DNA of 64,000 nucleotides from a virus (IMGVR_UViG_3300005095_000172:1-64000); one strand, 5' to 3'. Positions 1,727 through 54,447 are shown, counted from the first letter of the stretch. Notes: generated by a model not told the origin, from the letters alone. A program made the numbers and translations.

Positions 1727-1768
1727 CCTTTATTTTAACTTCTATATTATAGCTAAAGTTAGCTTAAA
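1727..1768 (-). promoter_or_regulatory. Copy of a conserved ~45-nt promoter element. Minus-strand sense: AGCTAACTTTAGCT palindrome, then TATAAT, then ~20 nt, then AAAGAAAGG RBS, then ATG.
   Basis: One of about 20 near-identical copies, each at fixed spacing before a minus-strand start codon. Confidence 0.6.
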
Positions 1769-1783
1769 CTAAGATAAATTAGT

Positions 1784-2284
1784 TTACACAAAAGTTTTTT
1801 GAATTAATTCACCAGTAGGTTCATAAATTTCTTTAATATGAACGGCTCCTAAATCTCCATTTTCTTGCTGATATGTGAAGTCAATCAATCCATTTTCATA
1901 AACTTGAAAGATACCGTATTCAGTGATGGCCTTATCTTTTTGTGTGTCGATGATACTTTCTTCACTTATACCTAGTTTTTCCATTAAATCATAGATTTCA
2001 CTAAGTTCTCTTTTACTTTTTTGAAAAACTTTCTTCTCTAGTTCACGGAAATACTCATCTTGTGTCTGGTATTTTTCATACACGAATTTTCTGATATCAG
2101 AAGGAGACAACGGTTCGTTCATTTCGATCATTTTCAAGTTTTCACTTTCATCTAGGAATCCATTATCTTCTGATGTGATGAAACAAGTATCTACGAATGT
2201 AGTTGTTAACAGAGCATTCGCTCTATCTATAACACTTGATACTCTTTCTTCTGGTGATTTTTTAATTGTTGCTACTACTTTCAT
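1784..2284 (-). CDS. hypothetical protein
   Basis: ORF track; 166 aa; acidic. Confidence 0.45.
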   Translation of the reverse strand: MKVVATIKKSPEERVSSVIDRANALLTTTFVDTCFITSEDNGFLDESENLKMIEMNEPLSPSDIRKFVYEKYQTQDEYFRELEKKVFQKSKRELSEIYDLMEKLGISEESIIDTQKDKAITEYGIFQVYENGLIDFTYQQENGDLGAVHIKEIYEPTGELIQKTFV

Positions 2285-2293
2285 TTTTCTTCC

Positions 2294-2455
2294 TTATAGA
2301 GTTTCTCTGAATTCTTTTACGATTTGAGTAATTTCCTTGGTTGTATAACCATGGTCTGGGAATTTCACTTTGATGTAATTTTTTAAATCACTCGCTTTGG
2401 TCTTACCAGACATTGCCATTGCTTCTCTTAGTTTTTGTTCAGAAACTGTTTTCAT
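2294..2455 (-). CDS. small hypothetical protein (53 aa; not in the ORF track, which omits ORFs under 60 aa)
   Basis: ATG at 2453-2455 with the conserved promoter/RBS element directly upstream; reads MKTVSEQKLREAMAMSGKTKASDL... Confidence 0.35.
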   Translation of the reverse strand: MKTVSEQKLREAMAMSGKTKASDLKNYIKVKFPDHGYTTKEITQIVKEFRETL

Positions 2456-2461
2456 TTTAGT

Positions 2462-2504
2462 CCTTTCTTTTTAACTTCTATATTATAGCTAAAGTTAGCT
2501 TAAA
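2462..2504 (-). promoter_or_regulatory. conserved promoter element copy
   Basis: Consensus match 'cctttctttttaacttctatattatagctaaagttagcttaaag'. Confidence 0.6.
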
Positions 2505-2533
2505 GAGAAATAAACTGATAAAATATTCTATCA

Positions 2534-3013
2534 TTAGATCATTTCTTCATAAATGACTTCAAAATTGTTTTCAGGGTCTAGAAGTTTTACATAACAAACC
2601 TTTTCTTCCCTACCGATAAACCCAGCATAAGATTGTTCTATTAGCCCAGAACTCAGTAATTTAAAGTCTCCTGGGCCATAAGCTGACCTAACTCTAAAAA
2701 CACCTTCAGATACTTCTGAAACGTCTTCTAAAGAATATCCTCTTATCTTGAAAAGTTCAATGATTTGTTCTGGGAATAATTCGTCCAAGATAGTTTTCTT
2801 GAACTCTTCATTTTGTCCAGTAAGTGATTGAATATGTTCTACATTAAAGAGAAATCTCATAGTAGCTTCCTCTTTTTCTTTAGGCACATCAGTTACTGTC
2901 AATTGGCTTATATTTGTCAAAAGTTCTTTTTCTGCGAACTCAACTACTTCTTTGAAGCTAATGATCTTAACATTACCTGAACCGTTTCTAAATTCTAGAG
3001 TAAAAGTTTTCAT
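2534..3013 (-). CDS. hypothetical protein
   Basis: ORF track; preceded by a promoter element copy. Confidence 0.45.
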   Translation of the reverse strand: MKTFTLEFRNGSGNVKIISFKEVVEFAEKELLTNISQLTVTDVPKEKEEATMRFLFNVEHIQSLTGQNEEFKKTILDELFPEQIIELFKIRGYSLEDVSEVSEGVFRVRSAYGPGDFKLLSSGLIEQSYAGFIGREEKVCYVKLLDPENNFEVIYEEMI

Positions 3014-3020
3014 TTTTAAG

Positions 3021-3064
3021 CCTTTCTTTTTAACTTCTTTATTATAGTGTGTTTTAGCTTAAAG
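3021..3064 (-). promoter_or_regulatory. conserved promoter element copy (palindrome degenerate)
   Basis: Partial consensus match. Confidence 0.45.
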
Positions 3065-3251
3065 TTTGGTTAAATTTAGAAATTTTATTTTCCCAAATCA
3101 ATTTCATTAAATCCTCTATTAGTTTTTCAGCTTCCTTTTCACTGATTTTCATAACTTGTATCTGTTCATTTCTTCCTAAATAAAATGAAATTGAAAAGTT
3201 CCCATCTTTGTCAGGACCGCTTGGTGATGTAATTTTTGAATAATGAGTCAT
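3054..3251 (-). CDS. hypothetical protein
   Basis: ORF track. Confidence 0.35.
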   Translation of the reverse strand: MTHYSKITSPSGPDKDGNFSISFYLGRNEQIQVMKISEKEAEKLIEDLMKLIWENKISKFNQTLS

Positions 3252-3333
3252 GCTTTATACTACTCCATTTAGCTTATGATACGCTTAAAATATTTGATAC
3301 TTAAATATTGAGTATTTGAATTAAGGAGAAATC

Positions 3334-3597
3334 ATGTTAAAGGAAATTCTTGAAGAATTGAACGCTGATGTTGAAGAAAAGAAGATGACGCCAACAGAGA
3401 AAAAGGCAGCGGCAAAGTACGCAAAAACACCTCAAGCAAAAAAGGCGACAAAACTTAAAGCTAAGTGTATGGCGAAATTTGGTGATAAAGTTAGAGCTTC
3501 TGGTGGTAAACTAACTTGTAAAGCAGACGGTACTGTCGGTAAAGGTATGGATAAAGCTACTAAGAAAGCTATGATGAAAGCGAGAAAGAAGCACTAA
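3334..3597 (+). CDS. Lys/Ala-rich basic protein, histone H1 / Hc1-like (putative DNA-binding or condensing protein)
   Basis: Only well-supported plus-strand gene. Strong RBS 'taaggagaaatcATG'. Low-complexity 'KKAAAKYAKTPQAKKATKLKAK' composition. Followed by a bidirectional hairpin. Confidence 0.55.
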   Translation: MLKEILEELNADVEEKKMTPTEKKAAAKYAKTPQAKKATKLKAKCMAKFGDKVRASGGKLTCKADGTVGKGMDKATKKAMMKARKKH

Positions 3598-3607
3598 GTT
3601 TAAATTT

Positions 3608-3644
3608 GATTCAGGAAGTAAGTTTGAAACAGAATTCCTGAATC
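3608..3644. terminator. bidirectional hairpin between convergent genes (perfect 10-bp stem gattcaggaa/ttcctgaatc, 17-nt loop)
   Basis: Seen in the sequence. Lies 11 nt after the plus-gene stop and 8 nt after the minus-gene stop. U-tracts are weak. Confidence 0.45.
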
Positions 3645-3651
3645 AGTTACT

Positions 3652-4080
3652 TTAAGAAATGCTCATGTCTAAAATGATAATTTCTCCAGAAGGAGTCTGG
3701 TTTATGAAAGTCGTTACATTCAATTCACCCTTATCTATTGTTCCAGGTGTGTTTATCGTTTCGTCACAAACTACTCTATAATCATCAATACAGTTCTGGG
3801 ATTTAGCAAACTCTAAAACTCTTTCAAAACTACTTCTAACTTCCGCTCTAAGTGATTCATCGTTCATTTCAAATTGTACTTTACTCATGTAATTCGAAAG
3901 ATCAGATTTGATTTCATTTAAGCATTTTCTTACATTCGCACGTTCAAATAGGTTACAGGAAGTTTCTTGTGGATAATTTTCAACTACATTTTCGTTTGCT
4001 TCAAGACCAAATGCTACCAATAACGCAGTTGGGACATATAATTTCAGGAATAATCTTCTTGTTTTGTTGAATTCAGTCAT
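3652..4080 (-). CDS. hypothetical secreted/membrane-anchored protein
   Basis: N-terminal hydrophobic segment 'RRLFLKLYVPTALLVAFGL'. Confidence 0.4.
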   Translation of the reverse strand: MTEFNKTRRLFLKLYVPTALLVAFGLEANENVVENYPQETSCNLFERANVRKCLNEIKSDLSNYMSKVQFEMNDESLRAEVRSSFERVLEFAKSQNCIDDYRVVCDETINTPGTIDKGELNVTTFINQTPSGEIIILDMSIS

Positions 4081-4319
4081 CTTTTCTTTACCTCTAATTT
4101 ACCATCTTTATACCCATAAGACATTAGTGTTTTTGTATTTTTACCACATTTGGGGCACATAAATCTTGTATGGTTAAAAATAGAAGAGTTGTCATACACA
4201 GCTTCGCAATCATCGCAATAAGTACACTCTTTCCACTCAGTATCATTTGGAGTAAGAGTTTTCATGTACATGACAAAAAGACCGCCAATAAATCCTAATA
4301 TAAAAGTTAAAGGGCACAT
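4077..4319 (-). CDS. membrane-anchored zinc-ribbon protein
   Basis: N-terminal TM helix; CxxC...CxxC ('CTYCDDC...CPKCG'). Confidence 0.4.
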   Translation of the reverse strand: MCPLTFILGFIGGLFVMYMKTLTPNDTEWKECTYCDDCEAVYDNSSIFNHTRFMCPKCGKNTKTLMSYGYKDGKLEVKKR

Positions 4320-4422
4320 TTTAAACTTCCATCAATGCAATAAAAACGCATTTTTTGTAGGTTTTTGACCTTTCTATTAATGTACTTGTTTCACCACTTA
4401 ATGTGCTTCCTAAAATAATCAT

Positions 4423-4632
4423 CTAACACCCTTTCTTAATTTTATTTGCTTGTTCTTTAGAAATCGTTCTTAATAGATAAATTGAATTTGCGTCCATAGT
4501 TCTATTTTTATAAAGCTTAATGTCCCCGTCAATCTCTTTATCTTCAAATTCAGTTTCGATGAGACACTTTACTCCGTATTCATCAAAATCTTCGATGTAA
4601 TCAATATCCCTTAGAATAAAGTTGTAATCCAT
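4423..4632 (-). CDS. hypothetical protein
   Basis: ORF track; promoter element upstream. Confidence 0.4.
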   Translation of the reverse strand: MDYNFILRDIDYIEDFDEYGVKCLIETEFEDKEIDGDIKLYKNRTMDANSIYLLRTISKEQANKIKKGC

Positions 4633-4638
4633 TTTAGT

Positions 4639-4682
4639 CCTTTCTTTTAAAGTTCTGTATCATAGCTAAAGTTAGCTTAAAG
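4639..4682 (-). promoter_or_regulatory. conserved promoter element copy
   Basis: Consensus match. Confidence 0.55.
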
Positions 4683-4691
4683 AGAATATAT

Positions 4692-4898
4692 CTACAAGAA
4701 TTTATGCACTTTCCATTTTTCTTCTACTACCTTAGTTGCAAAAACCATGTCTACTTCCATAGCTATCCTATGTAGCCAAAATACAACAGTTTCATTTCTC
4801 TTTTCCACAAAATATTTCAGTATTTCAAAATCACCGTTAAGGATCATGTTGGAAATACAAGTTGGAGTGATTTGAGTTTTATCTATGTTGATATACAT
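4692..4898 (-). CDS. hypothetical protein
   Basis: ORF track. Confidence 0.35.
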   Translation of the reverse strand: MYINIDKTQITPTCISNMILNGDFEILKYFVEKRNETVVFWLHRIAMEVDMVFATKVVEEKWKVHKFL

Positions 4899-5055
4899 AT
4901 CTCTGTTTGTCCCTTTAAATGTCGTGAAACTTTTTTCTTAAGTATAGTTTCAAATATTCTTCTATATTCTTAGCACCTACTGGATTTGCGCTATGAACAT
5001 TGAACCTAAAGTGTCTTGGAATTTCTATTACTCCATCTAAATCAGCTTCAACTAT

Positions 5056-5241
5056 CTATTTTACTAAGTCATACCCAGTAAGTTCTTTAACTCCTGGTTC
5101 TATACCAAGGTCATGGTCAAACGAAATATAGTCAGGGAAATCATTGTTAAGTAAGAACAAGACTGCTTCATCATAGCTTCTTACTACTATAAATGATTCC
5201 TCTTTAGGAGTTCTGATGTCGTCTAAGTAAAGTTTAGTCAT
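5056..5241 (-). CDS. hypothetical protein
   Basis: ORF track. Confidence 0.35.
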   Translation of the reverse strand: MTKLYLDDIRTPKEESFIVVRSYDEAVLFLLNNDFPDYISFDHDLGIEPGVKELTGYDLVK

Positions 5242-5242
5242 T

Positions 5243-5440
5243 TTAGTTCTTTCTATTTTTTACTATGCTTCTTAGAAAATCAATTTTTTGATTCACACCA
5301 ATGTCGTTCATATCCCATTTATATCCATGTTCTTTAGCATAAACCACCAAATCTTGAAAAGTGATTCTTGAAATTTCGTTAGGGAATTCACCAACTACCG
5401 CTCGTGAAATTAGTTCACTTATGACTTCTTGCTTATTCAT
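5243..5440 (-). CDS. hypothetical protein
   Basis: ORF track; promoter element upstream. Confidence 0.4.
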   Translation of the reverse strand: MNKQEVISELISRAVVGEFPNEISRITFQDLVVYAKEHGYKWDMNDIGVNQKIDFLRSIVKNRKN

Positions 5441-5445
5441 TATTT

Positions 5446-5493
5446 CCTTTCTTTTCTTTTTAACTTCTATATTATAGCTAAAGTTAGCTTAAA
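5446..5493 (-). promoter_or_regulatory. conserved promoter element copy
   Basis: Consensus match. Confidence 0.6.
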
Positions 5494-5710
5494 GAGAAAT
5501 AAAGTCTTTGTAATCTACAACTTGAATATCATTAGAATGAGTTTTTTGAGATTCAGCGTAAAAGAGAAGCTCATTAGTTTCACTTAATTGTTCGTCAATC
5601 TTTAAGATCATATCTACAAGCATTCGTTCTCTTGTTACTTTATAATCTCTCTTCAGTATTTGAATGAGATTCCTCTTTAAACTTTCTGTCGCAGAACTAT
5701 CTTGAACCAT
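5489..5710 (-). CDS. hypothetical protein
   Basis: ORF track. Confidence 0.35.
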   Translation of the reverse strand: MVQDSSATESLKRNLIQILKRDYKVTRERMLVDMILKIDEQLSETNELLFYAESQKTHSNDIQVVDYKDFISL

Positions 5711-5750
5711 CTCTATCAGTTCTTTATATCATATATGTTCATTTTTATCC

Positions 5751-6866
5751 TTATTCAATTTCGCCCAACAACTTTCTAGCTTGTTCTAGTTTAGAAGTTT
5801 CTTTGATAATTCTTTCCTTAATCATCTTCTCCATTTTTTCTGGAGAACTAGGATAGTCATAAAGACACTTCATAACAATACCAAAGTCTTGAGTTTTTGA
5901 ATGCTCAATAGCGAAAGATTTTCTATCGTTAAAATCAAAGAACTTGTTTCTAAGTTCAACGGCTTTTTGAACTCTATGGTTATAGTATTTTTCAATTTTC
6001 TCGATAATTCCCTCAATTCTTACTCTTTCTTCAGAACCTTGCTCAAGTTCAGCTAAAACATCATCAATTTCTTCATTTAGTATCAAGTCAATCAATGTGT
6101 TTTCCTTACTAAGATCATCTAGAAGACCGTGTCTTTCAATGTACCAATCTGTTTTTACTTTGATGAATTGACCGTCTTTGAATTTTACTACATATCCTTC
6201 AATATTTTCTTCAGAAGCCTTTCTCTCAATAATTTCATCTAAAGTCAAATCAAATGTTTCGGCAGCAGGAATTGACATTTCTTTCGCAAACTTTTTTACA
6301 TCATCTGTAGAATAGTATTCACCAGTTTCTTTATCCCGAACTTGAAGTAATCTAAGTTCAGTTCTTTCATAAGTTAGGACAATCTTATTTCTTGGAGAAA
6401 CCAATTCAAAAAGAAAAACTTTATCTAAATTGGCATCTAAGACATCTTGAATAAAACTTGTGAAAAGAATAGTACTAACCATTTTTGTTTGGTCATTGTC
6501 AAATGACATCTTTGTCTTTGGAACAAATTTTCCATTAGGTAGTCTAACGAATGAAATTAATGAACCATCTTCTTTGAAAGAAACTGAGTCAATTTCTTTA
6601 TCTTTCACGACTCCATATTGTACTGTTTCACCTTGGTTCAGGTTCAGGAACTTTGTCAACATAGGAGTTCTTTCCCAAACATCTTCATTTTTAAGGAAAG
6701 TTAAACCCCTCAATTCCCACGCATCATTTTCAATGAAGTCATTTTCAAACGCTAATCTGTAATTGAACAAAGCGTATTCGTACCCTTGGACAGTACCACT
6801 TTGAACATAAAATGCCTCTGAATTTTCGGTAATTTTAAGTGCTTCTTCATAAGTAGGTAATTTCAT
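5751..6866 (-). CDS. rnlA: RNA ligase 1 (T4 RnlA family)
   Basis: Nucleotidyltransferase motif I 'FKEDGSLIS' is identical in pattern to T4 Rnl1 'TKEDGSLVS'. N-terminal 'ELRGLTFL'/'FLNLNQGE' resemble T4 'ECRGIMFE'/'FFNLNENP'. Confidence 0.8.
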   Translation of the reverse strand: MKLPTYEEALKITENSEAFYVQSGTVQGYEYALFNYRLAFENDFIENDAWELRGLTFLKNEDVWERTPMLTKFLNLNQGETVQYGVVKDKEIDSVSFKEDGSLISFVRLPNGKFVPKTKMSFDNDQTKMVSTILFTSFIQDVLDANLDKVFLFELVSPRNKIVLTYERTELRLLQVRDKETGEYYSTDDVKKFAKEMSIPAAETFDLTLDEIIERKASEENIEGYVVKFKDGQFIKVKTDWYIERHGLLDDLSKENTLIDLILNEEIDDVLAELEQGSEERVRIEGIIEKIEKYYNHRVQKAVELRNKFFDFNDRKSFAIEHSKTQDFGIVMKCLYDYPSSPEKMEKMIKERIIKETSKLEQARKLLGEIE

Positions 6867-6876
6867 TTCTTTCCTT

Positions 6877-7389
6877 TTAAAATTGAATGATTTTCTTGAA
6901 CCAATTATTTGTTTTTTCTTTGAAACCCTTAAGTTCTTTTTCTAGTTCTTTATTTCTTTCCTTAAGATTTTGAATTTTCTTGAATTCTTTGTATGTGGTC
7001 GGATTACATTTTTCTAAAGAAATCATATCGTGTAAGTTATCGTGACATTTTATACATAACACTACTCCATTAGATTCATCATAGGCTAAGTTTTGATAGT
7101 ATGACTTAGGATAGATATGATGTGCTTGAAACCCACCTTTAGGATTCTTCACTCCACATACATCACACCCATTACCGTTCTTCTTAACTCTATCAGCCCA
7201 ATTTCGAAGCCTGCCTTTAGAAAGTGTTGGGTTAAGTTCCCGTTCTAATTGCTTAATTTCCCAATTTAGTTTCTTGACCTCACCATTCAGTTCTGAAATC
7301 CTTTCCTTTGCTTTTCGGTTAATCTCAAGTGTTTCATTATGGGTTTTTATAGTAGTTAGTCCGATTTTAGAAAGAATGGAAAACTTCAT
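6877..7389 (-). CDS. HNH endonuclease (free-standing homing-endonuclease-like) with coiled-coil
   Basis: 'CDVCG...HHIYPKS...CIKCHDNLH' HNH zinc-finger motif. Confidence 0.7.
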   Translation of the reverse strand: MKFSILSKIGLTTIKTHNETLEINRKAKERISELNGEVKKLNWEIKQLERELNPTLSKGRLRNWADRVKKNGNGCDVCGVKNPKGGFQAHHIYPKSYYQNLAYDESNGVVLCIKCHDNLHDMISLEKCNPTTYKEFKKIQNLKERNKELEKELKGFKEKTNNWFKKIIQF

Positions 7390-7634
7390 TTTTCAAACAC
7401 CTCATCTATATCTACCCAATATGAAATAGTATCAGCTGTTTCGAACCTAACTTCGTCTTCTTCTATACCGAAAGACCTGACTAACATAGTTCTAGAAACA
7501 CAATCAGCATCGAAATCTAGTTTCACTGATTTTTCGAAGGTATGTATATCAAACTCATCGAATCTAATCATAAATTCTTCGGTGAAATTTGTAAGTTTTC
7601 CCATTAGTTCTTTAAAAGTGAATGAAGTTTTCAT
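7386..7634 (-). CDS. hypothetical protein (its promoter is disrupted by the IS insertion)
   Basis: ORF track. It keeps the conserved RBS-ATG half of the promoter element, but the -10/palindrome half now sits on the far side of the IS. Confidence 0.4.
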   Translation of the reverse strand: MKTSFTFKELMGKLTNFTEEFMIRFDEFDIHTFEKSVKLDFDADCVSRTMLVRSFGIEEDEVRFETADTISYWVDIDEVFEK

Positions 7635-7640
7635 TTTAAG

Positions 7641-7652
7641 CCTTTCTTTTTA
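7641..7652 (-). promoter_or_regulatory. RBS-proximal remnant of a promoter element copy, cut off by the IS607 insertion
   Basis: Matches the consensus only up to 'cctttcttttta'. Confidence 0.45.
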
Positions 7653-7827
7653 TATGTTATATGATACTCTCCAAATATAAAGTAATTGTAAGTAATTAAT
7701 CTTTATATAAACTTAAACAAGCGTTTAAATCCAGAGTTCCTAATTCATCGACCTTGCTATAAATAGTCTTATTTGGTCTCCAAAGGCTTAATTTTATAGT
7801 GTTTCTGGGTATCCCTCAGTAGCACTT

Positions 7828-8991
7828 TTAGTTTTCTTTGAGTAACTCTAATCCTCTTCTAAGGATGTTTAGAGCAGCATTTATATCTCTATCTTCTTCA
7901 AAACCACAATGTTCACAATTATATATGCGTTCTGATAATTTCAGTTCATCTTTAACACAACCACACCTTGAACATGTCTTTGAAGAAGGATAGAATGTTT
8001 CTATTTGTACTACACTAACTTGGTTTTCGTTAGCTTTGTATAGAAGTTTGGTGACTAAATCACCCCAAGCAACATCTTGTATCGCTTTAGAAAGTCTTCT
8101 ATTTTTCATCATGTTCTTAACTTGAAGACTTTCTAAAGCAATGAAATCATAAATATTCACGAGTTTTCTTGTAATTTTATGGTTTCTATCATCTCTTTGA
8201 TTTTTGATTTTACGGTGTATCTTTTGTACTTTCTTCTTAGATTTTATTCTATTCTTAGAACCTTTCTTTCTTCTTGAAAGTTCTTTCTGAGCTTGTTTAA
8301 GCTTCTTAGAACTTTTATGAGTAAGTTTAGAATTCCCTATTTTCTCTCCATTAGAAGTTATCACTATGTCTTTTATCCCTAGATCAATACCAACTGGTTT
8401 ACTTTGTCCTTTGACTTTGAAAGAAGATATTTCAACTTTGAAAGTAATTGAGATAAAATATAAATCTCCTTCTTTAACGATTGTATAACCAGTAACTTTC
8501 TCTGGTAAATCCCAATTAGTCTTGTGTTTTTTGAATTTAATTAAATGGTCTTCTTTCGAATAAGGAGATGACTTTCCTTTTGGAATGACTATCTTGTTAT
8601 CATTGAATTTAACTCTTAACCCAGCATACATATTAATACTCTGAGTCATATTCTTCCTTGATTTGAATTTAGGATACCCACCATTTCTATAGAACCCTTG
8701 GAATCCTTTATAAAGGTTAGCTAATGAAGCTTGTAAGTAGTCATTAGCTGAACGATACAGAAAAGAGTGAGTTTGTTTAAGTTCTGTTAGAGATTTTCCT
8801 AATTGAGTTTGATTAGGGATATTTGGATAATCTTCGTTTTTAGAATAATGGCCAAATTTGAAATCTTTTATTTCTGATAAGATTTGGTTATAAACAAATC
8901 TTTGTTGACCGAATAATTCATATAGTAGAGCTTTTTGTTTAGCTGAAGGAAGGAGTCTATATTTATTAGTTCTGATGATACTTCTTGACAT
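7828..8991 (-). CDS. tnpB: TnpB (IS605/IS607 OrfB; RuvC-like RNA-guided nuclease family)
   Basis: C-terminal 'CSRCGCV...YNCEHCGFEEDRDINAALNI' RuvC-III/zinc-finger signature, typical length, basic K/R-rich central region. Confidence 0.85.
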   Translation of the reverse strand: MSRSIIRTNKYRLLPSAKQKALLYELFGQQRFVYNQILSEIKDFKFGHYSKNEDYPNIPNQTQLGKSLTELKQTHSFLYRSANDYLQASLANLYKGFQGFYRNGGYPKFKSRKNMTQSINMYAGLRVKFNDNKIVIPKGKSSPYSKEDHLIKFKKHKTNWDLPEKVTGYTIVKEGDLYFISITFKVEISSFKVKGQSKPVGIDLGIKDIVITSNGEKIGNSKLTHKSSKKLKQAQKELSRRKKGSKNRIKSKKKVQKIHRKIKNQRDDRNHKITRKLVNIYDFIALESLQVKNMMKNRRLSKAIQDVAWGDLVTKLLYKANENQVSVVQIETFYPSSKTCSRCGCVKDELKLSERIYNCEHCGFEEDRDINAALNILRRGLELLKEN

Positions 8992-9032
8992 AAACCCTCC
9001 TTATTTTAACTTATTATAGTTATTTAATACTC

Positions 9033-9623
9033 TTAAGTAGATTTTAGAAGAGTTTCTGTAGATTTTAATATTTTTCTTCTATTACTATACATTTTCATAC
9101 TAAAATGATGAATGATAGAAATTAAATCTTCAGTTAATTCTTGTTGAAAATCTTCTTCTTTAGAAGAATTCAACACAACTATTTCTACTCCAAACATTTC
9201 AAAGAAAGTTTCAAAATACCCAAACCCAAATCTCGTAAGTCTGTCTTTATATGAAATGTAAATTTTTGAAATTTTACCATCTTGTATATCTTTTAGTAGA
9301 GAATTCAACCCCTTTCTATTTTCATTCATGCCAGAAGCTATGTCGCTATATACATTTTCTGGAACAACTCCAGTACTAACCATGAATTCTCTAATTATCT
9401 TTTCTTGTCTGATTAAATCGTCTTTTTGTTTCGTGTTTGAAACTCTCGTGTATATCACACATTGTCTTTCTTTTTGTTCTTTTTCAGTGAAAACGTCTTC
9501 ATACATGAATTTCCTAGAAGATAATTCGATGTATTTTACTTTACCGTTTCTTCTCCAATTATTCAGAGTCTGAGTGGTTATTTTGTACTTTTCTTTCATT
9601 TCTTTAGCTGATAGATAACCCAT
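9033..9623 (-). CDS. tnpA: IS607-type TnpA serine recombinase (MerR-like HTH + resolvase catalytic domain)
   Basis: 'VIYTRVSNTKQKDDL' catalytic-Ser motif; N-terminal HTH 'ITTQTLNNWRRNGK'; lies immediately upstream of tnpB. Confidence 0.8.
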   Translation of the reverse strand: MGYLSAKEMKEKYKITTQTLNNWRRNGKVKYIELSSRKFMYEDVFTEKEQKERQCVIYTRVSNTKQKDDLIRQEKIIREFMVSTGVVPENVYSDIASGMNENRKGLNSLLKDIQDGKISKIYISYKDRLTRFGFGYFETFFEMFGVEIVVLNSSKEEDFQQELTEDLISIIHHFSMKMYSNRRKILKSTETLLKST

Positions 9624-9689
9624 TTTCCATTCCTTTAATTAAGTTTAAATTAAAGCTATTTAATTATAATAAAATATTGGAATAGAAAG

Positions 9690-9715
9690 TTATTATAACT
9701 AAAGTTAGCTTAAAG
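9690..9715 (-). promoter_or_regulatory. distal (TATAAT + palindrome) remnant of the same promoter copy, now facing tnpA
   Basis: 'ttattataactaaagttagcttaaag' with no cognate RBS/ATG at the usual spacing. Confidence 0.45.
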
Positions 9716-10458: not shown

Positions 10459-10483
10459 GATTTCTCCTTTTGAATGGTTTCTT

Positions 10484-11901: not shown

Positions 11902-11905
11902 GTGT

Positions 11906-46069: not shown

Positions 46070-47170
46070 TTATCCCTCTTCGATATTCACTTCTAATTCT
46101 TTTATCGGGTATCCGTGTTCAAGATATTCATTCAGTCTTTCATAGCTATGTTTCAATACATAATTTTTATTCGTAACTCTTCCAGTTTTTGTTTTTGTAC
46201 TGAAATCATCAATGAAGTCAAAATACCTCATCATATCCTTTTCTTTATGAAGTCTCATTCCTCTTCCGATTGACTGATTAAGTCTAATACTAGATTTAGT
46301 ACTGGCGGCACTGAAGAAATTGTGTAACCTCTTAATGTTCAACCCAGTCGAAACTGTCTGGGCACTTCCAATGATAATCCCGTCTTCTACATTTTCCAAT
46401 AATGCTCTTACTTCATTTCTTGTTTCTCCCTCAATAGAACCTTTAATTAGGTATATATGAAAATCACTAAGAACTCTGATTTTTCTAATGTCATCATCTG
46501 AAAAATGTTTAGACAGATTTCGTTTATCTTTATCTGTCAGTTCCGTAAGAACAAAAAGTTCTTCTGTAGAATTTATTTTTTCTTTTGCTTCCAGTACTCT
46601 CTTAGGAGTAACCTTTTCAAGGATAATAGGTTCTGGGATATTGAATTTATTTGCGAGTATAAGTTTAAGTAATAAATCACCGTGAGATATAGAGTTATAC
46701 ATAACCATAGAGTTCCCGTATTTTTCTGTGGCTTGAATAACCATCTTAGCTATGAAATTATTCCTTGGGATATGTTCTTCTATAAATTTAGTTTCCTTTT
46801 GGTAATTTTTCAAAGCTTTTACTTTTTTCTTATCAGCATCAGAATAGTTCAAGTACACCGTGACAATAGTTACAGGAGTTGCTAACCCTCTTTCAATCAA
46901 TCCTTGAGGAGTAATGATTTTCTTGGATTTACCTAAAGTGGCTGAAAGCGTGAATCTCCCTTCGTAAGTCTTCGGCAAAGTTCCCGTTAGGCCAATCTTA
47001 TAAAGACAATTTCTGGATGCGTTCAGAAGCTTAGTGAGTGACTCTCCTGTTGCGAGATGACAATTAGATACATTTAGTCCATTAGCAAAATAATTATGAT
47101 TATCTTCAACATGGAGATTATAGGTATCACCTTCGTAATGACATGGTTCAATTGAAACTATTTTTGACAT
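46070..47170 (-). CDS. uvsW: UvsW helicase C-terminal fragment preceded by a 36-aa split-intein C-half (IntC)
   Basis: It starts 'MSKIVSIEPCHYEGDTYNLHVEDNHNYFANGLNVSN|CHLATGESL', with its own GGAGG RBS. The IntC block (47063-47170) parallels Npu DnaE IntC. The extein 'CHLATGESLTKLL..CLYKIGLTGTL' matches T4 UvsW 'ECHLATGKSISSII..CMFKFGLSGSL'. Confidence 0.8.
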   Translation of the reverse strand: MSKIVSIEPCHYEGDTYNLHVEDNHNYFANGLNVSNCHLATGESLTKLLNASRNCLYKIGLTGTLPKTYEGRFTLSATLGKSKKIITPQGLIERGLATPVTIVTVYLNYSDADKKKVKALKNYQKETKFIEEHIPRNNFIAKMVIQATEKYGNSMVMYNSISHGDLLLKLILANKFNIPEPIILEKVTPKRVLEAKEKINSTEELFVLTELTDKDKRNLSKHFSDDDIRKIRVLSDFHIYLIKGSIEGETRNEVRALLENVEDGIIIGSAQTVSTGLNIKRLHNFFSAASTKSSIRLNQSIGRGMRLHKEKDMMRYFDFIDDFSTKTKTGRVTNKNYVLKHSYERLNEYLEHGYPIKELEVNIEEG

Positions 47171-47314
47171 ATATATTCCTCCATGGACAAAATCATTTTT
47201 CCTAATGAATTTTTATACCACCTTTTCAATATAGTTTTATTTTCTTTAGAAAATATAGTAATCTTTAAGCTTGTTTTTGAATAGAATGTGATTTGGAAAA
47301 ATTCACCAATTTTC

Positions 47315-47773
47315 TTAAATTCTTCTACTAAAAGAATTAATCGTTCGTTCAATTTTTCTTCTTGTATCCCCATCAATTGACTCCTTCATATTGTAATATT
47401 TTTCTTCAATTTTCCAGATATTCTCATAGAACCAATCGTCATCTATGAAAACATATTCATATCCGTGCGTCTCACACCATTGTTTAGCGAATTTCTCCTT
47501 TACCTTTACTACTTCGTCGCTCATTTCAGATTTAGGTTTAATTTCATAGAGTATTTTTCCAATTTCATCTTCAAAATCTATTATATATGTATGTGAAACC
47601 CCATTATATGAGTACGGGATTCTTGTTTTTTCATACATAAGTGATGGGTTTATCATGAAAAATAAAGCTTCCCAGGAACTCCTGAGAGCAACACCATTCA
47701 CATAACATCGTGATTTAGAATATGAATTCGTGATACAAGGAGTCCACTCACCGTTAGCTATTTTTGTTTTCAT
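47315..47773 (-). CDS. putative PD-(D/E)xK nuclease (candidate homing endonuclease) between the split-intein halves
   Basis: 'HTYIIDFEDEIGKILYEIKP' D...E-x-K signature; sits inside the fractured uvsW locus. Confidence 0.4.
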   Translation of the reverse strand: MKTKIANGEWTPCITNSYSKSRCYVNGVALRSSWEALFFMINPSLMYEKTRIPYSYNGVSHTYIIDFEDEIGKILYEIKPKSEMSDEVVKVKEKFAKQWCETHGYEYVFIDDDWFYENIWKIEEKYYNMKESIDGDTRRKIERTINSFSRRI

Positions 47774-47930
47774 GTATATAGATTGTCTCTCTGCTTTTTC
47801 TTGAGGTCTTCTTTATTCATGGTATGATTTGGATTATTTTCAGTTATGTATTTAGAGTGAAGAGCGTTCTCACATTTTTTATTACAAGTTTTCCTATACG
47901 CACCATATCCATATAAACTGGAGTCTCTCT

Positions 47931-48401
47931 TTAATCTTTTTTGACAAAATGCACAGTTTTCGAGTGGGAAAAATAATCTAATATTTCAGTATTAGTCATT
48001 TCATAAAATTCAGTATGTTCTAGACCAAATTTCAAAAACATTTTCATGTATTTATTTTTTCCTCTAAGCTCCGTACTTTCGTGAAGTTTTGAGTTAGAAT
48101 ACTGTAAAGCAATAATTTCATCTTCTATATTACTTCTTTCAATGGGATATATAACTCTTCCATTTTCATCCCAAATAGCATAATTTAAATCTATATCTGT
48201 AATGTCAAATAAAACTGCAAACTTGAAGAAATAGAAGTTGATATGGTTTTCGTTAATTTTTCCTAAATCTTTTCTAAGGTAAGTTATCTTACCTTTGATC
48301 TTTGATCTTACTGCTTTTGTGTATGGGGTTTTAGTGAGGAAGAGTTTAAGTTCAGTTAGAGAACTAATTCTTTCTATTTCTTTAAATATATTTCTTTTCA
48401 T
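47931..48401 (-). CDS. hypothetical protein between the split-intein halves (possible partner of the nuclease)
   Basis: ATG with GGAG RBS; no recognisable motif. Confidence 0.4.
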   Translation of the reverse strand: MKRNIFKEIERISSLTELKLFLTKTPYTKAVRSKIKGKITYLRKDLGKINENHINFYFFKFAVLFDITDIDLNYAIWDENGRVIYPIERSNIEDEIIALQYSNSKLHESTELRGKNKYMKMFLKFGLEHTEFYEMTNTEILDYFSHSKTVHFVKKD

Positions 48402-48446
48402 CTCATTCTCCGAGTAAAATTTAAGCCATGGCTTGCCTCTATTTAA

Positions 48447-49430
48447 TCAACTTACACTTAAAATGTCATCCCCAACTAATAATTCATCAACTCTTACCCA
48501 ACCCCTTTTTGTGTTTACTTTATGGTTTCCAGTGATAATAAGTTCTTTCCCGTCCTCAGTCTTTAGCTTATACGTCTGTTCTTTTGGAAGATTCTTGTGT
48601 ACTTTTCTTACCTTTTTGTATTCATATTCACCAGAGTTTTCATTTATCGTCAATACTTCTTCACCAACTGAAATCTCACTTATTTTTTTCACCCCATCTT
48701 TTGTCAGTATTGGTGTGTTTGGATGTAAACATTCATCAACTATTACATAATCTAATTGGTCATAGTCGGACTCTTTCATAAGTATTCCCGACTGCCATGT
48801 AGTGACAACCATAGGCTTACTAAATGATTTTTCTTTCCCAGCAAATATCGTGTGAAGCTTTTTATCTGCATCTTCTTCACTCATCCCATAACTAAGGAAA
48901 TCTGAACGCATCTGTTCGGCTAATCCGACATTCGGAACTATCAGTAAACCTTTCTTTCCGTGTCTTTCGAAGAATGACATGATAAGAAAAACAATCAAAC
49001 TTTTTCCTGCCCCAGTAGCCGCTACGATTATTCTTCGTGGATGCTTGAGTACTTCCCTTAATGCGTCAACTTGATAATCATATGGTTCAAATGGGAGATT
49101 TAGTGATTTAATATGTTCTTGGATATCTGCTTCTGAGAAAAATTCTGGTTCAGTCTTAGGAGTGTAAGGTTCGTCTAAGTGGTCTTTATATCTAAGTGAA
49201 ATTGTTTCAGCTAACCCTTTTGGTATTTGCATAGATAAGTCAGATAACACCTTGAAATAGTATTTCTTACCGTCCCATATACCAGATCTGTATTTTGGTG
49301 AAAACTTATACCCATCCACAAAAACACTCAAGTCATCCATTAATTTAGTTCTTAGAACTAAAGCTTCTTCTTCTGAATGAGAATCGAAAGTTATAATAGA
49401 AAAACTTTCATCTTTATCAAAAATCTTCAT
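48447..49430 (-). CDS. uvsW: UvsW helicase N-terminal fragment followed by a 94-aa split-intein N-half (IntN)
   Basis: N-terminus 'DGYKFSPKYRSGIWDGK' matches T4 UvsW 'DGYRFNPRFRYGNWDGR'. Walker A 'ATGAGKS'. 'VIVDE|CLHPNTPILTKDG...ITGNHKVNT...' are intein blocks A/B. The ORF ends at a stop after IntN (48450-48731). Confidence 0.8.
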   Translation of the reverse strand: MKIFDKDESFSIITFDSHSEEEALVLRTKLMDDLSVFVDGYKFSPKYRSGIWDGKKYYFKVLSDLSMQIPKGLAETISLRYKDHLDEPYTPKTEPEFFSEADIQEHIKSLNLPFEPYDYQVDALREVLKHPRRIIVAATGAGKSLIVFLIMSFFERHGKKGLLIVPNVGLAEQMRSDFLSYGMSEEDADKKLHTIFAGKEKSFSKPMVVTTWQSGILMKESDYDQLDYVIVDECLHPNTPILTKDGVKKISEISVGEEVLTINENSGEYEYKKVRKVHKNLPKEQTYKLKTEDGKELIITGNHKVNTKRGWVRVDELLVGDDILSVS

Positions 49431-49491
49431 ATATCCCCTCTTTTGTTTAGGGATATTTTATAAAAAGAAACTTAATATTGACTTAATGTAT

Positions 49492-49795: not shown

Positions 49796-50071
49796 TTAAT
49801 GCTTAAAATTAAATTCTAGTCTATTTTCATTTTTAGACCAATATCTTTCTATTATTCCAGTGACTGTTCTGTACACATAACCGTCATCGATGTCAACTAC
49901 ATAAGAATCTGATGGAAAGCGTTTCAACTCCTTTATGACATCTTTTACAGTTGAAACCCCACTTGTGAAATCGTGGTCAATCGTACCATCCTCCTGAATA
50001 ATTATACCAGAGGTAAATTTAATGTTCTTAGGATACTGTTCTAAAATTTCAATTAATTGTTCTGAATTCAT
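49796..50071 (-). CDS. hypothetical protein
   Basis: ORF track; promoter element upstream. Confidence 0.4.
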   Translation of the reverse strand: MNSEQLIEILEQYPKNIKFTSGIIIQEDGTIDHDFTSGVSTVKDVIKELKRFPSDSYVVDIDDGYVYRTVTGIIERYWSKNENRLEFNFKH

Positions 50072-50077
50072 TTTTAG

Positions 50078-50118
50078 CCTTTCTTTTTAACTTCTATATT
50101 ATAACTAAAGTTAGCTTA
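50078..50118 (-). promoter_or_regulatory. promoter element copy
   Basis: Consensus match. Confidence 0.55.
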
Positions 50119-50126
50119 GAATTCCT

Positions 50127-50444
50127 TTAATCCAAAAGTTCAATTTTGGCTCTTTTAATTTTATACCCGTCGAAAGTACCTTTTACATTTATAGTTGAAT
50201 TCAAGTCAATACAAGTTCTTCCAACAAGATGAGTATCGAATTCCAAAATCCCTGAATCAACAAGAACTCTTTGCTTTTGTTCATTCAATGAAGAGAAGTG
50301 TACTCTTACCTTTTTCTTATCTTTTGTCATACCAATCAAAGTATATGTCCATCCGTACATACCGTTCTCAATCTTCATTTGGATAGGCTTAATGTCAATG
50401 TCAACTTTTTGCCCATTTTCAAGGTCAGTCCAATCAAGCATCAT
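50127..50444 (-). CDS. hypothetical protein
   Basis: ORF track. Confidence 0.4.
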   Translation of the reverse strand: MMLDWTDLENGQKVDIDIKPIQMKIENGMYGWTYTLIGMTKDKKKVRVHFSSLNEQKQRVLVDSGILEFDTHLVGRTCIDLNSTINVKGTFDGYKIKRAKIELLD

Positions 50445-50855
50445 AATCCAGACAGCGTTATACTGTCTTTCAGTAAGAGTTCCATTTCTTCAATCATTTC
50501 TTTCATACTTCTCAAGAAAGAGTTATCTTCTGAACCTTGAGCAATAAATTCCATCATTTCAGAATTTGTTTCATAGAACTCTTGTACAAAAGTCTTACCT
50601 CTGGCTTCCTCTTCTTCTAAGCGTAGAACTCTTTTTAGTTCGTCTTCATAAGCTTTGTTTTCAGAATATACTTCAGAAATTGTCTTTCCCATTAGTTTAT
50701 TGGCACAACCACTTCCAACAGAGACAGTTTTATTAGTTTTGTTATTTTTTGATTAGATAAGCGTGTTTGATTCCTCTTCCACAAGTGTCACAACAGAAAG
50801 TTTTATCTGAAGATGATCTTTTCTCGAGGATAGAGAATTTAATAGAGGTTTTCAT
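50441..50855 (-). pseudogene. Cys-containing small protein split by a frame change in an A6 run (37-aa N-terminal piece + 83-aa ORF)
   Basis: The ATG with promoter element is at 50853-50855. The 0-frame stops right after AAA AAA (T-run 50745-50750 on the plus strand), and the +1 frame opens exactly there. Confidence 0.3.
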
Positions 50856-50861
50856 TTTAAG

Positions 50862-50904
50862 CCTTTCTTTTAACTATTATATTATAGCTAAAATTAGCTT
50901 AAAA
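50862..50904 (-). promoter_or_regulatory. promoter element copy
   Basis: Consensus match. Confidence 0.55.
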
Positions 50905-51103
50905 TGAAATTAATTATGGAGTATGTAGTAGTAAGATTAGGAATCTTCTCCATCCCAATCTTTATCTACTTCATCAAAGAATTTCTTTCGATCTTCTTTG
51001 TCTAGTTCAGAAGGAGATTTAACTCCATATTTCTTTAATTTTCCTTTGAAGAATTTTTGATATTCTGTTTCTTCATTCAGTTTTTCTAGAATTTCTTTCA
51101 ACA

Positions 51104-52074: not shown

Positions 52075-52447
52075 TCAATTCATCACCAGCTTTCTTTAAT
52101 TCTTTGAATAAAGAAACTATTTCATTTAACAGTGCTTCGTCCTTTTCCCACCCAATATAGTGAGAATGTTTCCAATTTTCAGCTCTATCTTTATAAAGTT
52201 CTTCTATCACATCATCAGCATATGAATAGTCCCACCATCTATGTCTCCAAATAACCTTTCTGTAACGCCAGAAGTTCTTTAATCCTATGATTAAATCATA
52301 TCTAAAAAAGTCTTTAATTTTATGCGCTGTTCTATAAACCCAAAGCTCAATCTTTTCTTTTTTAGACAGCTTAGTTTCATCGAACATTCGTTCCAATTCT
52401 TCTAAATCAATAACTTCAAATTCTTCAAGCTTATTCTTCATATTCAA
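52001..52447 (-). CDS. hypothetical protein
   Basis: ORF track; overlaps its neighbour at the 5' end, so the real start is probably internal. Confidence 0.35.
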   Translation of the reverse strand: MNMKNKLEEFEVIDLEELERMFDETKLSKKEKIELWVYRTAHKIKDFFRYDLIIGLKNFWRYRKVIWRHRWWDYSYADDVIEELYKDRAENWKHSHYIGWEKDEALLNEIVSLFKELKKAGDELSEVDKEEMLRKEVYKLIGERRFWD

Positions 52448-52736
52448 GTTCCTTACAATGTTCGCAAAGCACGCAATCCTCTTCTAGAGTGGGCATTAAT
52501 TCAAAATCAGTTTTGTCTATTCTCCTAATGCCCATTCCGGTTAGTGTCCATTCTATGTCTTCTTTGGGCATATCATCTATGAAGAAAGATTTTCCTTTTA
52601 TGATTCCTTCTACTTGGCAATTTTCACATCTATCCACAGTAACTGGGGTGAATACCCCATTTACTTCGTGGAATTTTCTGACACCAAACCCTATAAGTTT
52701 CTTTAGGACAATTCTATCAGAATAATCAAAATCCAC
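52431..52736 (-). CDS. hypothetical Cys-containing protein
   Basis: 'CENCQ...CVLCEHC'. Confidence 0.35.
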   Translation of the reverse strand: MDFDYSDRIVLKKLIGFGVRKFHEVNGVFTPVTVDRCENCQVEGIIKGKSFFIDDMPKEDIEWTLTGMGIRRIDKTDFELMPTLEEDCVLCEHCKELEYEE

Positions 52737-52805
52737 TATACTTCCTTATGAACTTTCTCCATCACTTCTAATGATGATATCTCCTTCGTATATGAAAAAC
52801 TTCCA

Positions 52806-53861
52806 TCATAACCCAGCTTCTTTATCTAGCCTTTCCATGAACCATTTTCTTGCGATAGTTGAAATGTGTTTATTCACATCTTTTGGTTCAAGACCTCTTT
52901 CTACAAGGACGTCCATTTCTTCTTTCATAACATCGGAAACAACCGCCTTAAGGAACTCTCCTGTTCTCTTAACATCACCCTTTCCACCATTGAGAACATC
53001 GAATGTCTCATTGTACATTTGTTCTAGTCTCCAAGATGGAGTAGCGTAATTAGCAAAGTCAATTTTCTTTTGTTCAAGCTCACTATCCACTTTACTTAGT
53101 TTTTTCACTTTTGAATTAGAATGCTTATCCCCCTTACTCTTAAAGGAAAATCTATTTCCGTCGAACCAACCGACGAACACAATCCCTTCTCCGATACCTG
53201 AAACGCCAAATTTCTTAGCGACAGGACATTCATTTTCTACATATTCGGTGAGTTTCACAATTTCTTCTTGTGCTTTAGAAGGATTTTCAAAATCAATATC
53301 TACTTCGAATGTTTCAAAGTCAAAGATAGAAAAAATTCTAAGTTCAGGATTTTTTACTCTATTGAAAATTACTCTTGGATCCACAGCCCATCTATAATCT
53401 TCCTCATCTTTCATTTTGAATTTAATACCGAACATATAGAATGATTTGTCTAGTTCAGAAATACCGACCCCATTTTGAATTCCATTTCCAGCCCATTCTC
53501 CATAAATACATAATTCTTCAATTTCATCGCCTTTATACATATCATCAAAAACTTCATTCAGCATTGACTCAATGTAATCCCTAATACTTTCTACATAAAA
53601 GGCAAATCCTGCGTTGTCTTTGTCTACGGTGATTACATTTTTCTTAGACTGACACCACATTTCACGCTCTGAATTCATACAAATACTAGCGTTTGTTCCG
53701 TGGAGCTTCACTGTACCTACAAAAGTCACCGTAGGAAGGTCTTTAGAATGGTCATAAACAGCATTTCCGTCTTCATCCACACCTTTGTATCTCGCAACAT
53801 GAGATAGGTCTTTTACCACGTTTCTGAATTGAGCAATGCTCGGCATTTTGATTAGTTTCAT
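52806..53861 (-). CDS. RNA ligase, Rnl2-like (nucleotidyltransferase with KxHGxN motif I)
   Basis: 'VTFVGTVKLHGTNASI' versus T4 Rnl2 'WVAREKIHGTNFSL'. Confidence 0.6.
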   Translation of the reverse strand: MKLIKMPSIAQFRNVVKDLSHVARYKGVDEDGNAVYDHSKDLPTVTFVGTVKLHGTNASICMNSEREMWCQSKKNVITVDKDNAGFAFYVESIRDYIESMLNEVFDDMYKGDEIEELCIYGEWAGNGIQNGVGISELDKSFYMFGIKFKMKDEEDYRWAVDPRVIFNRVKNPELRIFSIFDFETFEVDIDFENPSKAQEEIVKLTEYVENECPVAKKFGVSGIGEGIVFVGWFDGNRFSFKSKGDKHSNSKVKKLSKVDSELEQKKIDFANYATPSWRLEQMYNETFDVLNGGKGDVKRTGEFLKAVVSDVMKEEMDVLVERGLEPKDVNKHISTIARKWFMERLDKEAGL

Positions 53862-53873
53862 TTTTCTTCCTTT

Positions 53874-54128
53874 TTAAAATTGAGAACTTAGTTCGCTGTA
53901 AATTTTCTCAGTTTGTTCGTAATGTGTGTCTAAAAATTCTTCCAATTTCTGAAGATCATGAGTAGTTGCATCTGTTCCAAACAAAGCGTCGATTTCTCTT
54001 AGTAGAGTTTCCATTTCATCTGCTCTTGGGTGTTTAACGATAGAACAAAAGTCTTTGATGTATCTCAAGTTTACTCTAAGGAGTTTTGCGTCATTTATCA
54101 TATCGTGTAATTCATTTATTAGTTTCAT
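53874..54128 (-). CDS. hypothetical protein
   Basis: ORF track. Confidence 0.35.
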   Translation of the reverse strand: MKLINELHDMINDAKLLRVNLRYIKDFCSIVKHPRADEMETLLREIDALFGTDATTHDLQKLEEFLDTHYEQTEKIYSELSSQF

Positions 54129-54137
54129 ACTTTATCC

Positions 54138-54398
54138 TTAGAAAGATTTCTTAATGTATTTTTCGAAAAGCTCTATTTTTGAAATGAATTCACCGTCGGA
54201 ATTCTTTGCTCTTGTATTATAAGAACCAAATGGAACCCAATACACTCCATTGATTTCATACTCAGTTTCCCTGAAAAAATCCCTTACGTCTTTAAAAGTA
54301 ATTGAGTTTAGCATCTTTTCATAGGTTCCATTACCTTTAATTTTGTTTCCACAAATCACGGTATCAATTAGTGTATCGATGATAACTTTTGTTTTCAT
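54138..54398 (-). CDS. hypothetical protein
   Basis: ORF track; promoter element upstream. Confidence 0.4.
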   Translation of the reverse strand: MKTKVIIDTLIDTVICGNKIKGNGTYEKMLNSITFKDVRDFFRETEYEINGVYWVPFGSYNTRAKNSDGEFISKIELFEKYIKKSF

Positions 54399-54403
54399 TT
54401 TAA

Positions 54404-54447
54404 GCCTTTCTTTTCAACTATTATAGTATAACTAAAGTTATCTTAAA
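54404..54447 (-). promoter_or_regulatory. promoter element copy
   Basis: Consensus match. Confidence 0.5.

Follow-up and report, generated by a model that had tools for sequence, protein, structure and literature searches.

The 64,000-nt sequence IMGVR_UViG_3300005095_000172:1-64000, which in its entirety we refer to as the window, derives from an uncultured virus and carries about 20 near-identical promoter cassettes upstream of small genes. All of the substantial open reading frames (ORFs) are on the minus strand, and the G+C content of the whole window is ~32%. Protein-family matches include gp32, a UvsW helicase interrupted by an intein, RNase H and a Toprim primase, together with RNA ligases 1 and 2, a kinase-domain protein, NAMPT and an amino-acid:DNA transferase; the sliding clamp, UvsY and nucleotide kinases are also matched, and as judged from these families the window belongs to a divergent T4-like phage. 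A nucleotide search of a phage collection returned zero matches to the window, and exact-protein look-ups with gp32 and with a small protein resembling sigma region 4 (see below) found no record.

The cassettes are readily recognized by motif matching. The 22-mer TTAAGCTAACTTTAGCTATAAT has 16 matches in the window when up to three mismatches are permitted, all of them on the minus strand and compared with 0.01 expected, and a 24-mer with up to six mismatches identifies 18 copies, with none on the plus strand. Two more degenerate copies at 3062 and 21921 retain TTAAG-N11-TATAAT with altered sequence between the two elements, and bring the family to ~20 copies, all on the minus strand. The unit delimited by a repeat finder is 45-66 nt long and runs through the leader and the ribosome-binding site to the ATG; the copies are in the coding-strand orientation in front of small ORFs, and in 14 of the 20 the start codon follows the last base of TATAAT at a distance of 25-27 nt. 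The initial annotation of this region had described some 20 near-identical promoter elements at fixed spacing, with a perfect -10 and no E. coli-type -35 hexamer, and both of these descriptions are borne out. The copies also form one homogeneous set as it had proposed, and because they have the leader and ribosome-binding site in common, co-regulation and uniform translation starts are plausible. The literal string that it gave, with an extra T between a palindrome and TATAAT, is absent, and its 20-mer has just two chance-like matches; the palindrome and the -10 overlap by one base, since AGCT ends with the T that begins TATAAT.

Alignment of all of the copies and construction of a motif, which had been proposed as a check, was carried out, with per-position information computed on the 20 copies (numbered such that TATAAT is at -12 to -7). 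The invariant positions are T-29, T-27, A-26, A-25 and G-24, within TTTAAG at -29 to -24, and T-12, A-11, T-10 and T-7 in the -10 hexamer. Eleven base pairs upstream of the proximal box is a further block, TT(A/T)A (-39 to -36), which in this family is mostly TTTATTT or TTAATTT, not TTAAG. Blocks of TTTA or TTAA thus recur at -40/-39, -29/-28 and -18/-17 with a period of 11. The host sigma-70 consensus expected of T4 early promoters (a TTGACA-like -35 separated by 16-18 bp from TATAAT) is not present: the -10 is perfect, and positions -35 to -30 contain almost no information (0.04-0.58 bits).

Related phages provide a broader view of the same promoters. Five contigs with gp32 proteins 59-70% identical to that of the window were found in a viral collection, and a scan using the relatives' version of the motif identified 36 loci on at least eight contigs and gave 73 usable promoters. 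They share the consensus tTTAAGCaagGT-TTAAGC-nnnn-TTACGG-TATAAT, after which come a similar leader and an ATG, with TTAAGC at -39 to -34, TTAAG at -28 to -24, G-14 and TATAAT all retained. The distal box was outside the search pattern, although its TTAA nonetheless scores 1.6-1.9 bits. As read from these alignments, the clade-level design is two TTAAG boxes 11 bp apart (-39 to -35 and -28 to -24), G-14 and TATAAT, and the anatomy of the window family, taken from its sequence and this comparison, is TT(A/T)A at -39 to -36, TTTAAG at -29 to -24, G-14, and TATAAT at -12 to -7. Positions -22 to -19 are free to vary in the relatives and are near-constant among the window copies, where the spacer is fixed as CTAACTTTAGC; this similarity at positions that are free elsewhere fits cassette duplication or recombination.

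The fixed spacer gives the window copies the sequence AGCTAACTTTAGCT, which had been described as a perfect 14-bp palindrome located exactly where a -35 hexamer would be. Neither part of this description holds. The sequence is a 6-2-6 inverted repeat, AGCTAA-CT-TTAGCT, with a non-symmetric CT at its centre, and it lies in the spacer and the extended -10 zone (-25 to -12), while it is the -35 to -30 interval that is nearly devoid of information. The repeat could be an operator placed over a host-type promoter, at which a dimeric phage protein shuts off or times the early set. Its overlap with the -10 is a typical repressor position, and AGCTAANNTTAGCT, with no more than one mismatch, occurs 14 times compared with 0.16 expected, almost exclusively within these promoters. 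Furthermore, the repeat is the product of a switch throughout the family: -18 to -13 reads TTACGG in the related phages and TTTAGC here, three positions differ (-16, -15 and -13), and all three are now complementary to the left arm; in a simple model the chance of three changed positions all turning complementary is ~1 in 27.

The symmetry is not maintained, however. All six pairs are present in ten of the 20 copies and the remaining copies have two to five, with no compensating double changes among the 20. G-24 is invariant and its partner at -13 is C in 14 copies; position -23 is C in 13 copies and its partner G-14 is kept in 18, such that the pairing partners -23 and -13 are among the least conserved positions. 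In the copy at 13195 both -23 and -13 are G; these are 10 bp apart and are not inverted-repeat partners, and this copy fits a 10-bp direct repeat (AGGTA...AGGTA) rather than a dyad. The right arm is lost from the copy at 3062, which has kept the box, the -10 and the whole leader, and from the copy at 21921, which has kept the box and the -10. None of the 73 homologous promoters of the related contigs has five or more of the six pairs at the palindrome positions, and thus dyad symmetry is not preserved across either copies or orthologous sites. An exact-motif scan of viral contigs for the palindromic version found nothing, and a looser viral scan and a metagenome scan returned single, unrelated matches only; in no other genome of the viral or metagenome collections is the palindromic version multi-copy, and no close relative of the phage emerged from these searches. 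A separation of 8 bp between half-site centres is small for a helix-turn-helix dimer, and no cognate regulator has been identified. We therefore regard an operator function as unlikely. The proposal that the palindrome is the recognition element is likewise not supported, as half of the copies have a disrupted repeat with no compensating change and the promoters of the relatives lack it. The repeat is probably incidental, and may be a by-product of the adjacent AGCT-containing elements TTAAGCTAA and TTTAGCTAT, which can also be read as a 10-bp direct repeat; as such it would not be needed for promoter function.

An inverted repeat just upstream of the presumed start, within a long conserved region, is also reminiscent of the promoters of the N4 virion polymerase, and could point to an RNA polymerase, phage-encoded or carried in the virion, that recognizes a DNA hairpin. 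We rejected this on the stem-loop geometry, a 6-bp stem with a 2-nt loop being sterically poor, and on the absence of the repeat from the relatives. The genome is also T4-like (gp32, UvsW, UvsY, clamp, primase and RNase H), there is no polymerase gene in the window, and the perfect TATAAT points to a sigma-70-type enzyme; an N4-like mechanism is highly improbable.

The boxes themselves define a larger promoter class. TTAAG-N10/11-TAnAAT occurs 25 times on the two strands of the window compared with 1.8 in shuffled sequences, 24 of these being on the minus strand and one on the plus strand. E. coli-type sigma-70 promoters are not enriched in positions 1-20000 (60 found and 77.6 expected), and that scan misses the cassettes; the late-promoter motif TATAAATR is not enriched either (17 and 13.7 expected), and no other abundant promoter class is seen in the intergenic regions. 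Given that there is neither E. coli-type enrichment nor another abundant class, the promoters that act first after infection must be among those of the TTAAG class.

The same design is present in replicons known from Campylobacter. In the Campylobacter phage CP30A (Fletchervirus) there are 13 double-box sites, TTAAG-N6-TTAAG-N11-TA(T/C)AAT, in 100 kb compared with 0 expected, and these precede gp32, DNA polymerase, helicase, ligase, NrdA, topoisomerase and other genes. In CP220 (Firehammervirus), a stretch of 50 kb contains 21 single-box sites compared with 3.1 expected, several of which are near-identical duplicates. The third and decisive example is the C. jejuni 81-176 plasmid pVir, which has six to eight near-identical cassettes of the form aaggtatataTTAAGtatagaTTAAGtataaaaaaggTATAAT...aaaggcaaaaagATG with exactly the same spacings, and six double-box sites compared with 0 expected. 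The pVir family (TTAAG-N6-TTAAG-N11-TATAAT plus a leader) is positioned before small genes at 11284, 16230, 21975, 25637, 29037, 29972 and 31218, and to our knowledge has not been described previously. The TTAAG-N6-TTAAG-N11-TATAAT spacing is identical in the CP30A, CP220 and pVir versions and in the window, although the window spacer CTAACTTTAGC creates an inverted repeat that is not seen in the other three.

These features correspond to what has been reported for promoters of C. jejuni. The C. jejuni sigma-70 consensus, as quoted from Wosten 1998 in PMC3824568 and PMC7755780, is TATAAT with TTTAAGTnTT in the -35 region and is "completely different" from that of E. coli; a periodic A/T pattern replaces the -35 box, leaders are 20-50 nt long, and the ribosome-binding site is AAGGA (PMC3656092). 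RNA sequencing of the Campylobacter phage NCTC 12673 ascribed most phage transcription to two A/T-rich motifs (PMC6024767). The window promoters resemble Campylobacter- and Helicobacter-type RpoD promoters (Wosten 1998; Petersen 2003; Dugar 2013, PMC3656092) in having TATAAT without TTGACA, an upstream A/T periodicity of 10-11 bp, a short leader and an AAGGA-like ribosome-binding site, and in a TTTAAG motif that may correspond to the one of the -35 region. TTTAAGTnTT itself, at 18-19 bp from the -10, is found in the relatives (TTTAAGCAAG, -40 to -31) and in five looser promoters of the window; the distal block of the 20-copy family is mostly TTTAWTT, with the complete TTTAAG found one turn closer, at -29 to -24.

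The initial annotation had compared the cassettes with the MotA/AsiA system, and they could be middle-type promoters requiring a phage activator that is functionally analogous, with a factor on the TTAAG box near -28 replacing the contact between sigma region 4 and a -35 hexamer. T4 MotA boxes have the sequence (a/t)(a/t)(a/t)TGCTTtA, are centred at -30, and sit 11-13 bp upstream of the -10. The window promoters are similar: their -10 is perfect, they lack a -35 hexamer, and a conserved box is located 11 bp, or about one helical turn, upstream of the -10. Vibrio phage Va1, which has the same clamp-gp32-RNaseH-primase gene order as the window phage, offers a further parallel: within a 50-kb stretch (90001-140000) it has no such TTAAG sites, and its clamp, gp32 and other replication genes are preceded by TTTAAA(T)-N10/11-TATAAT, with GTTTAC-N17-TATAAT promoters of early type also present. 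There are, however, several departures. The window box is TTTAAG at -29 to -24 and not TGCTTTA, it is centred near -26.5 and not -30, and it is accompanied by a second phased box. The two-box design is common to Campylobacter phages of two genera and to pVir, a C. jejuni plasmid without phage genes, and it resembles the published C. jejuni -35-region motif. There are no matches to MotA or AsiA PHROG families among the ~112 window ORFs, a search that divergent analogues would escape, and no other candidate class of early promoter is evident in 64 kb of early-type genes. The MotA/AsiA analogy is accordingly not supported, and dependence on a phage activator seems unlikely.

The annotation's own candidate for a binding factor was the 119-aa product of the ORF at 36774-37133 (minus strand), a conserved small ORF that would also favour an activator. 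Its resemblance to sigma region 4.2 stands as a weak similarity: ~40 residues at its C terminus can be aligned to primary sigma factors over region 4.2 and the C-terminal tail, in a match of 38 residues (E=0.0055 against PDB) that is the sole basis of the sigma-4 idea, and the protein is conserved at 51-66% in related contigs. Nothing links it to the promoters, however. There is no Pfam match even at E values up to 10 and no PHROG match; there is no homologue in the Campylobacter phages that use the same promoter design, and the protein is absent from named phages. An AlphaFold model (two-sequence alignment; predicted local distance difference test, pLDDT, 84) has long helices and does not reproduce a helix-turn-helix, and a Foldseek search of PDB with this model gave no match. 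Moreover, the ORF is encoded downstream of a cassette and its product therefore cannot be required for the first use of the cassettes. We note that a degenerate promoter-like copy, AGCTAATGTTACCTATATTAT, is at 37203-37216, upstream of this ORF. A phage-specific control layer over a host-type promoter, with the inverted repeat as an operator for an early phage protein and/or the 36774-37133 product redirecting the host polymerase, is in our estimation quite improbable.

We think it likely that the cassettes are early promoters, repeated before small genes, that are read directly by the main (sigma-70/RpoD) RNA polymerase of the host. The host polymerase is favoured as the reader because the design is used by pVir, because it resembles the published C. 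jejuni motif, because E. coli-type promoters are not enriched (positions 1-20000) and no other abundant class is found in these 64 kb, and because no MotA/AsiA relative was detected among the window ORFs. The two TTAAG-type boxes would face the same side of the helix, being 11 bp apart, and could stand in for a TTGACA-type -35 as happens in Campylobacter and related bacteria. Transcription would start ~7 nt downstream of TATAAT, giving a leader of ~20 nt in which AAAGG precedes the ATG by 7-9 nt. A standard short leader and ribosome-binding site appear to be fused to each promoter and the whole unit repeated as a cassette, with the near-identity of copies presumably reflecting cassette duplication or recombination together with selection for one strong design. 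From this promoter design, the host of this phage is probably a member of the Campylobacterota.

Several observations weigh against this interpretation. The start sites and the polymerase are both deduced from sequence, and the family-wide switch of TTACGG to TTTAGC is left unexplained by a host-type promoter. The window family also departs from Campylobacter-type promoters in having a distal box that is mostly TTTATTT or TTAATTT and in lacking an extended -10 TGn; positions -15/-14/-13 are A/G/C, with only G-14 conserved. None of these sites occurs on pTet, another C. jejuni plasmid, so use of the design varies within that host. The similarity to Campylobacter phages is distant, with the top named-phage match of gp32 being to these phages at 39%, and the primase is slightly nearer to a group of Vibrio phages. 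Furthermore, the Va1 box at about -28, in a phage whose host has a normal -35, may leave room for a lineage-specific phage factor. The window's TnpB is uninformative as a clue to the host, as its matches are just 30-49% and are in unrelated phyla.

A close parallel for the organization of the family is the T4-type early promoter and the promoter early stem-loop (PeSL) cassette described in RB49, phi1, T4/PST and KVP40/nt-1 (Arbiol 2010, PMC2839356; Comeau 2014, PMC4122927). Like PeSLs, the window cassettes are a many-copy, highly conserved intergenic motif in variable regions of small ORFs in a T4-like phage, they have the features of a strong host-polymerase promoter with an A/T-rich upstream part, and the copies within the genome are more alike than function needs, which is consistent with recombination between cassettes. 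Unlike PeSLs, there is no stem-loop or terminator component upstream of the window copies, and the strict PeSL definition does not apply; folding of the 70 nt upstream of each copy revealed no common hairpin, and no terminator-like sites adjoin the copies in positions 1-20000. The upstream element also differs, being TTAAG boxes and not TTGACA or GTTTAC, and in the window the leader and ribosome-binding site are part of the conserved unit.

The individual cassettes, all on the minus strand, were assigned by motif matching and distance to the start codon. At the right of the window, TTAAGATAACTTTAGTTATACT (54396-54458; four of six inverted-repeat pairs) drives an 86-aa ORF (54138-54398), TTAAGCTAATTTTAGCTATAAT (50853-50914; six pairs) a short ORF starting at 50855, and CTAAGCTAACTTTAGTTATAAT (50069-50131; five pairs) a 91-aa ORF (49796-50071). 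TTAAGATTACTTTAGCTATAAT (37491-37553; four pairs) drives an 88-aa ORF (37227-37493) with the sigma-4-like ORF next in line. Consensus cassettes are found at 36031-36092 (six pairs) driving a 100-aa ORF (35731-36033), at 34059-34121 driving a 237-aa ORF (33348-34061), and at 29428-29490 driving a 90-aa ORF (29158-29430). Between the latter two, TTAAGGTTGCTTTAGCTATAAT (31620-31678; three pairs) has an intact promoter and ribosome-binding site with ACG at the expected position of the ATG, which could reflect a decayed gene or a non-canonical start. TTAAGATAATTTCAGTTATAAT (26573-26635; three pairs), with a distal TTTAAGC, drives a 179-aa ORF (26036-26575), and the degenerate TTAAGTTTGTTTATAGTATAAT (21879-21933), without the inverted repeat, drives a 123-aa ORF (21510-21881). 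These are followed by TTAAGCTAAAATTAGCTATCAT (20984-21046; 109-aa ORF 20657-20986), TTAAGACTATTTTAGCTATAAT (17597-17659; three pairs; 65-aa ORF 17402-17599), TTAAGCTATCTTTAGCTATAAT (14296-14355), which has a differing leader and a GTG start for a 126-aa ORF (13918-14298), and TTAAGGTAATTTTAGGTATAAT (13141-13207), the copy with C-to-G changes at -23 and -13, before a 187-aa ORF (12580-13143).

In the leftmost part of the window, consensus cassettes drive a 65-aa ORF (cassette 5438-5504, ORF 5243-5440), a 53-aa ORF (cassette 2453-2515, ORF 2294-2455), and, with a GTG start, the 405-aa kinase-domain ORF (cassette 1718-1779, ORF 503-1720). A cassette with TATGAT as its -10 (4630-4692) drives a 69-aa ORF (4423-4632), and a member at 3011-3074 with TTAAGCTAA, TATAAT, the full leader, and a replaced right arm (AACACAC) drives a 159-aa ORF (2534-3013). 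Two partial copies flank an IS607-like element at 7828-9623 (minus strand), which consists of a serine-recombinase tnpA (9033-9623) and tnpB (7828-8991). Directly before it is a promoter half only, TTAAGCTAACTTTAGTTATAATAA (9690-9725), with tnpA/tnpB in place of the usual leader, and just downstream of it is TATCATATAACATATAAAAAGAAAGGCTTAAAATG (7627-7666), an orphan -10-like sequence with leader and ribosome-binding site and no TTAAG box. The element may have inserted into or beside a cassette.

A looser class of site with both boxes intact, TTAAG-N6-TTAAG-N10-TAnAAT, is also present on the minus strand. Examples are at 60575-60607 (TATAAT; before a 366-aa ORF, 59449-60549), 49455-49486 (TAAAAT; before UvsW) and 45423-45461 (TATAAT; before the sliding-clamp gene, 44702-45403). 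A single-box, promoter-like TTAAG-N10-TACAAT (59421-59441) precedes an intein-containing 690-aa ORF, and TTAAG-N6-TTAAGCTAA-N6-TATAAT with a ribosome-binding site and ATG (11918-11949) precedes a small ORF. The looser two-box sites may be a temporal class separate from the 20-copy family.

Several other features of the window are of interest, those with a strand assignment being on the minus strand unless noted. The UvsW helicase (46070-49430) is split by an intein region, with endonuclease-like ORFs between the parts, and the 690-aa ORF (57312-59384) also contains an intein together with an HNH endonuclease. A gene cluster typical of thymidine hypermodification extends over 54455-63843, with an amino-acid:DNA transferase/aGPT-pyrophosphorylase-like gene (62219-63211), an amidoligase (60603-61538), a glutamine amidotransferase (63208-63843) and several nucleotide kinases; a 2OG-Fe(II) oxygenase-like gene is weak and below the cutoff. 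Given this cluster, the promoters may be read on modified DNA. There is also an RNA-repair set (the kinase-domain protein, RNA ligases 1 and 2, and a Thg1-like tRNA-His guanylyltransferase) and genes for NAD salvage (NAMPT and an adenylyltransferase-like gene), which together correspond to 503-1720, 5751-6866, 52806-53861, 27543-28259 and 18115-20319. The array of minus-strand genes is broken by a 400-nt gap at 3252-3651, inside which are the sole sizeable plus-strand ORF (3334-3597) and a terminator-like hairpin on the minus strand (3428-3447).

The cassette family reveals no new regulatory principle, and the cassettes are best read as host-type early promoters that have been homogenised in the manner of T4-type early promoter cassettes, a kind that is already known. 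Were there a phage control layer involving the sigma-4-like protein, it would be a sigma-appropriation scheme unrelated to MotA/AsiA. For annotation, the cassettes mark early transcription units and the true start codons of ~20 small genes. More broadly, they allow the promoters of an uncultured clade of T4-like phages to be defined cleanly, as TATAAT together with TTAAG boxes spaced by 11 bp, and identify a strong two-box design that is common to Campylobacter phages of two genera and a Campylobacter plasmid; the promoter design alone suggests a host phylum for that clade.

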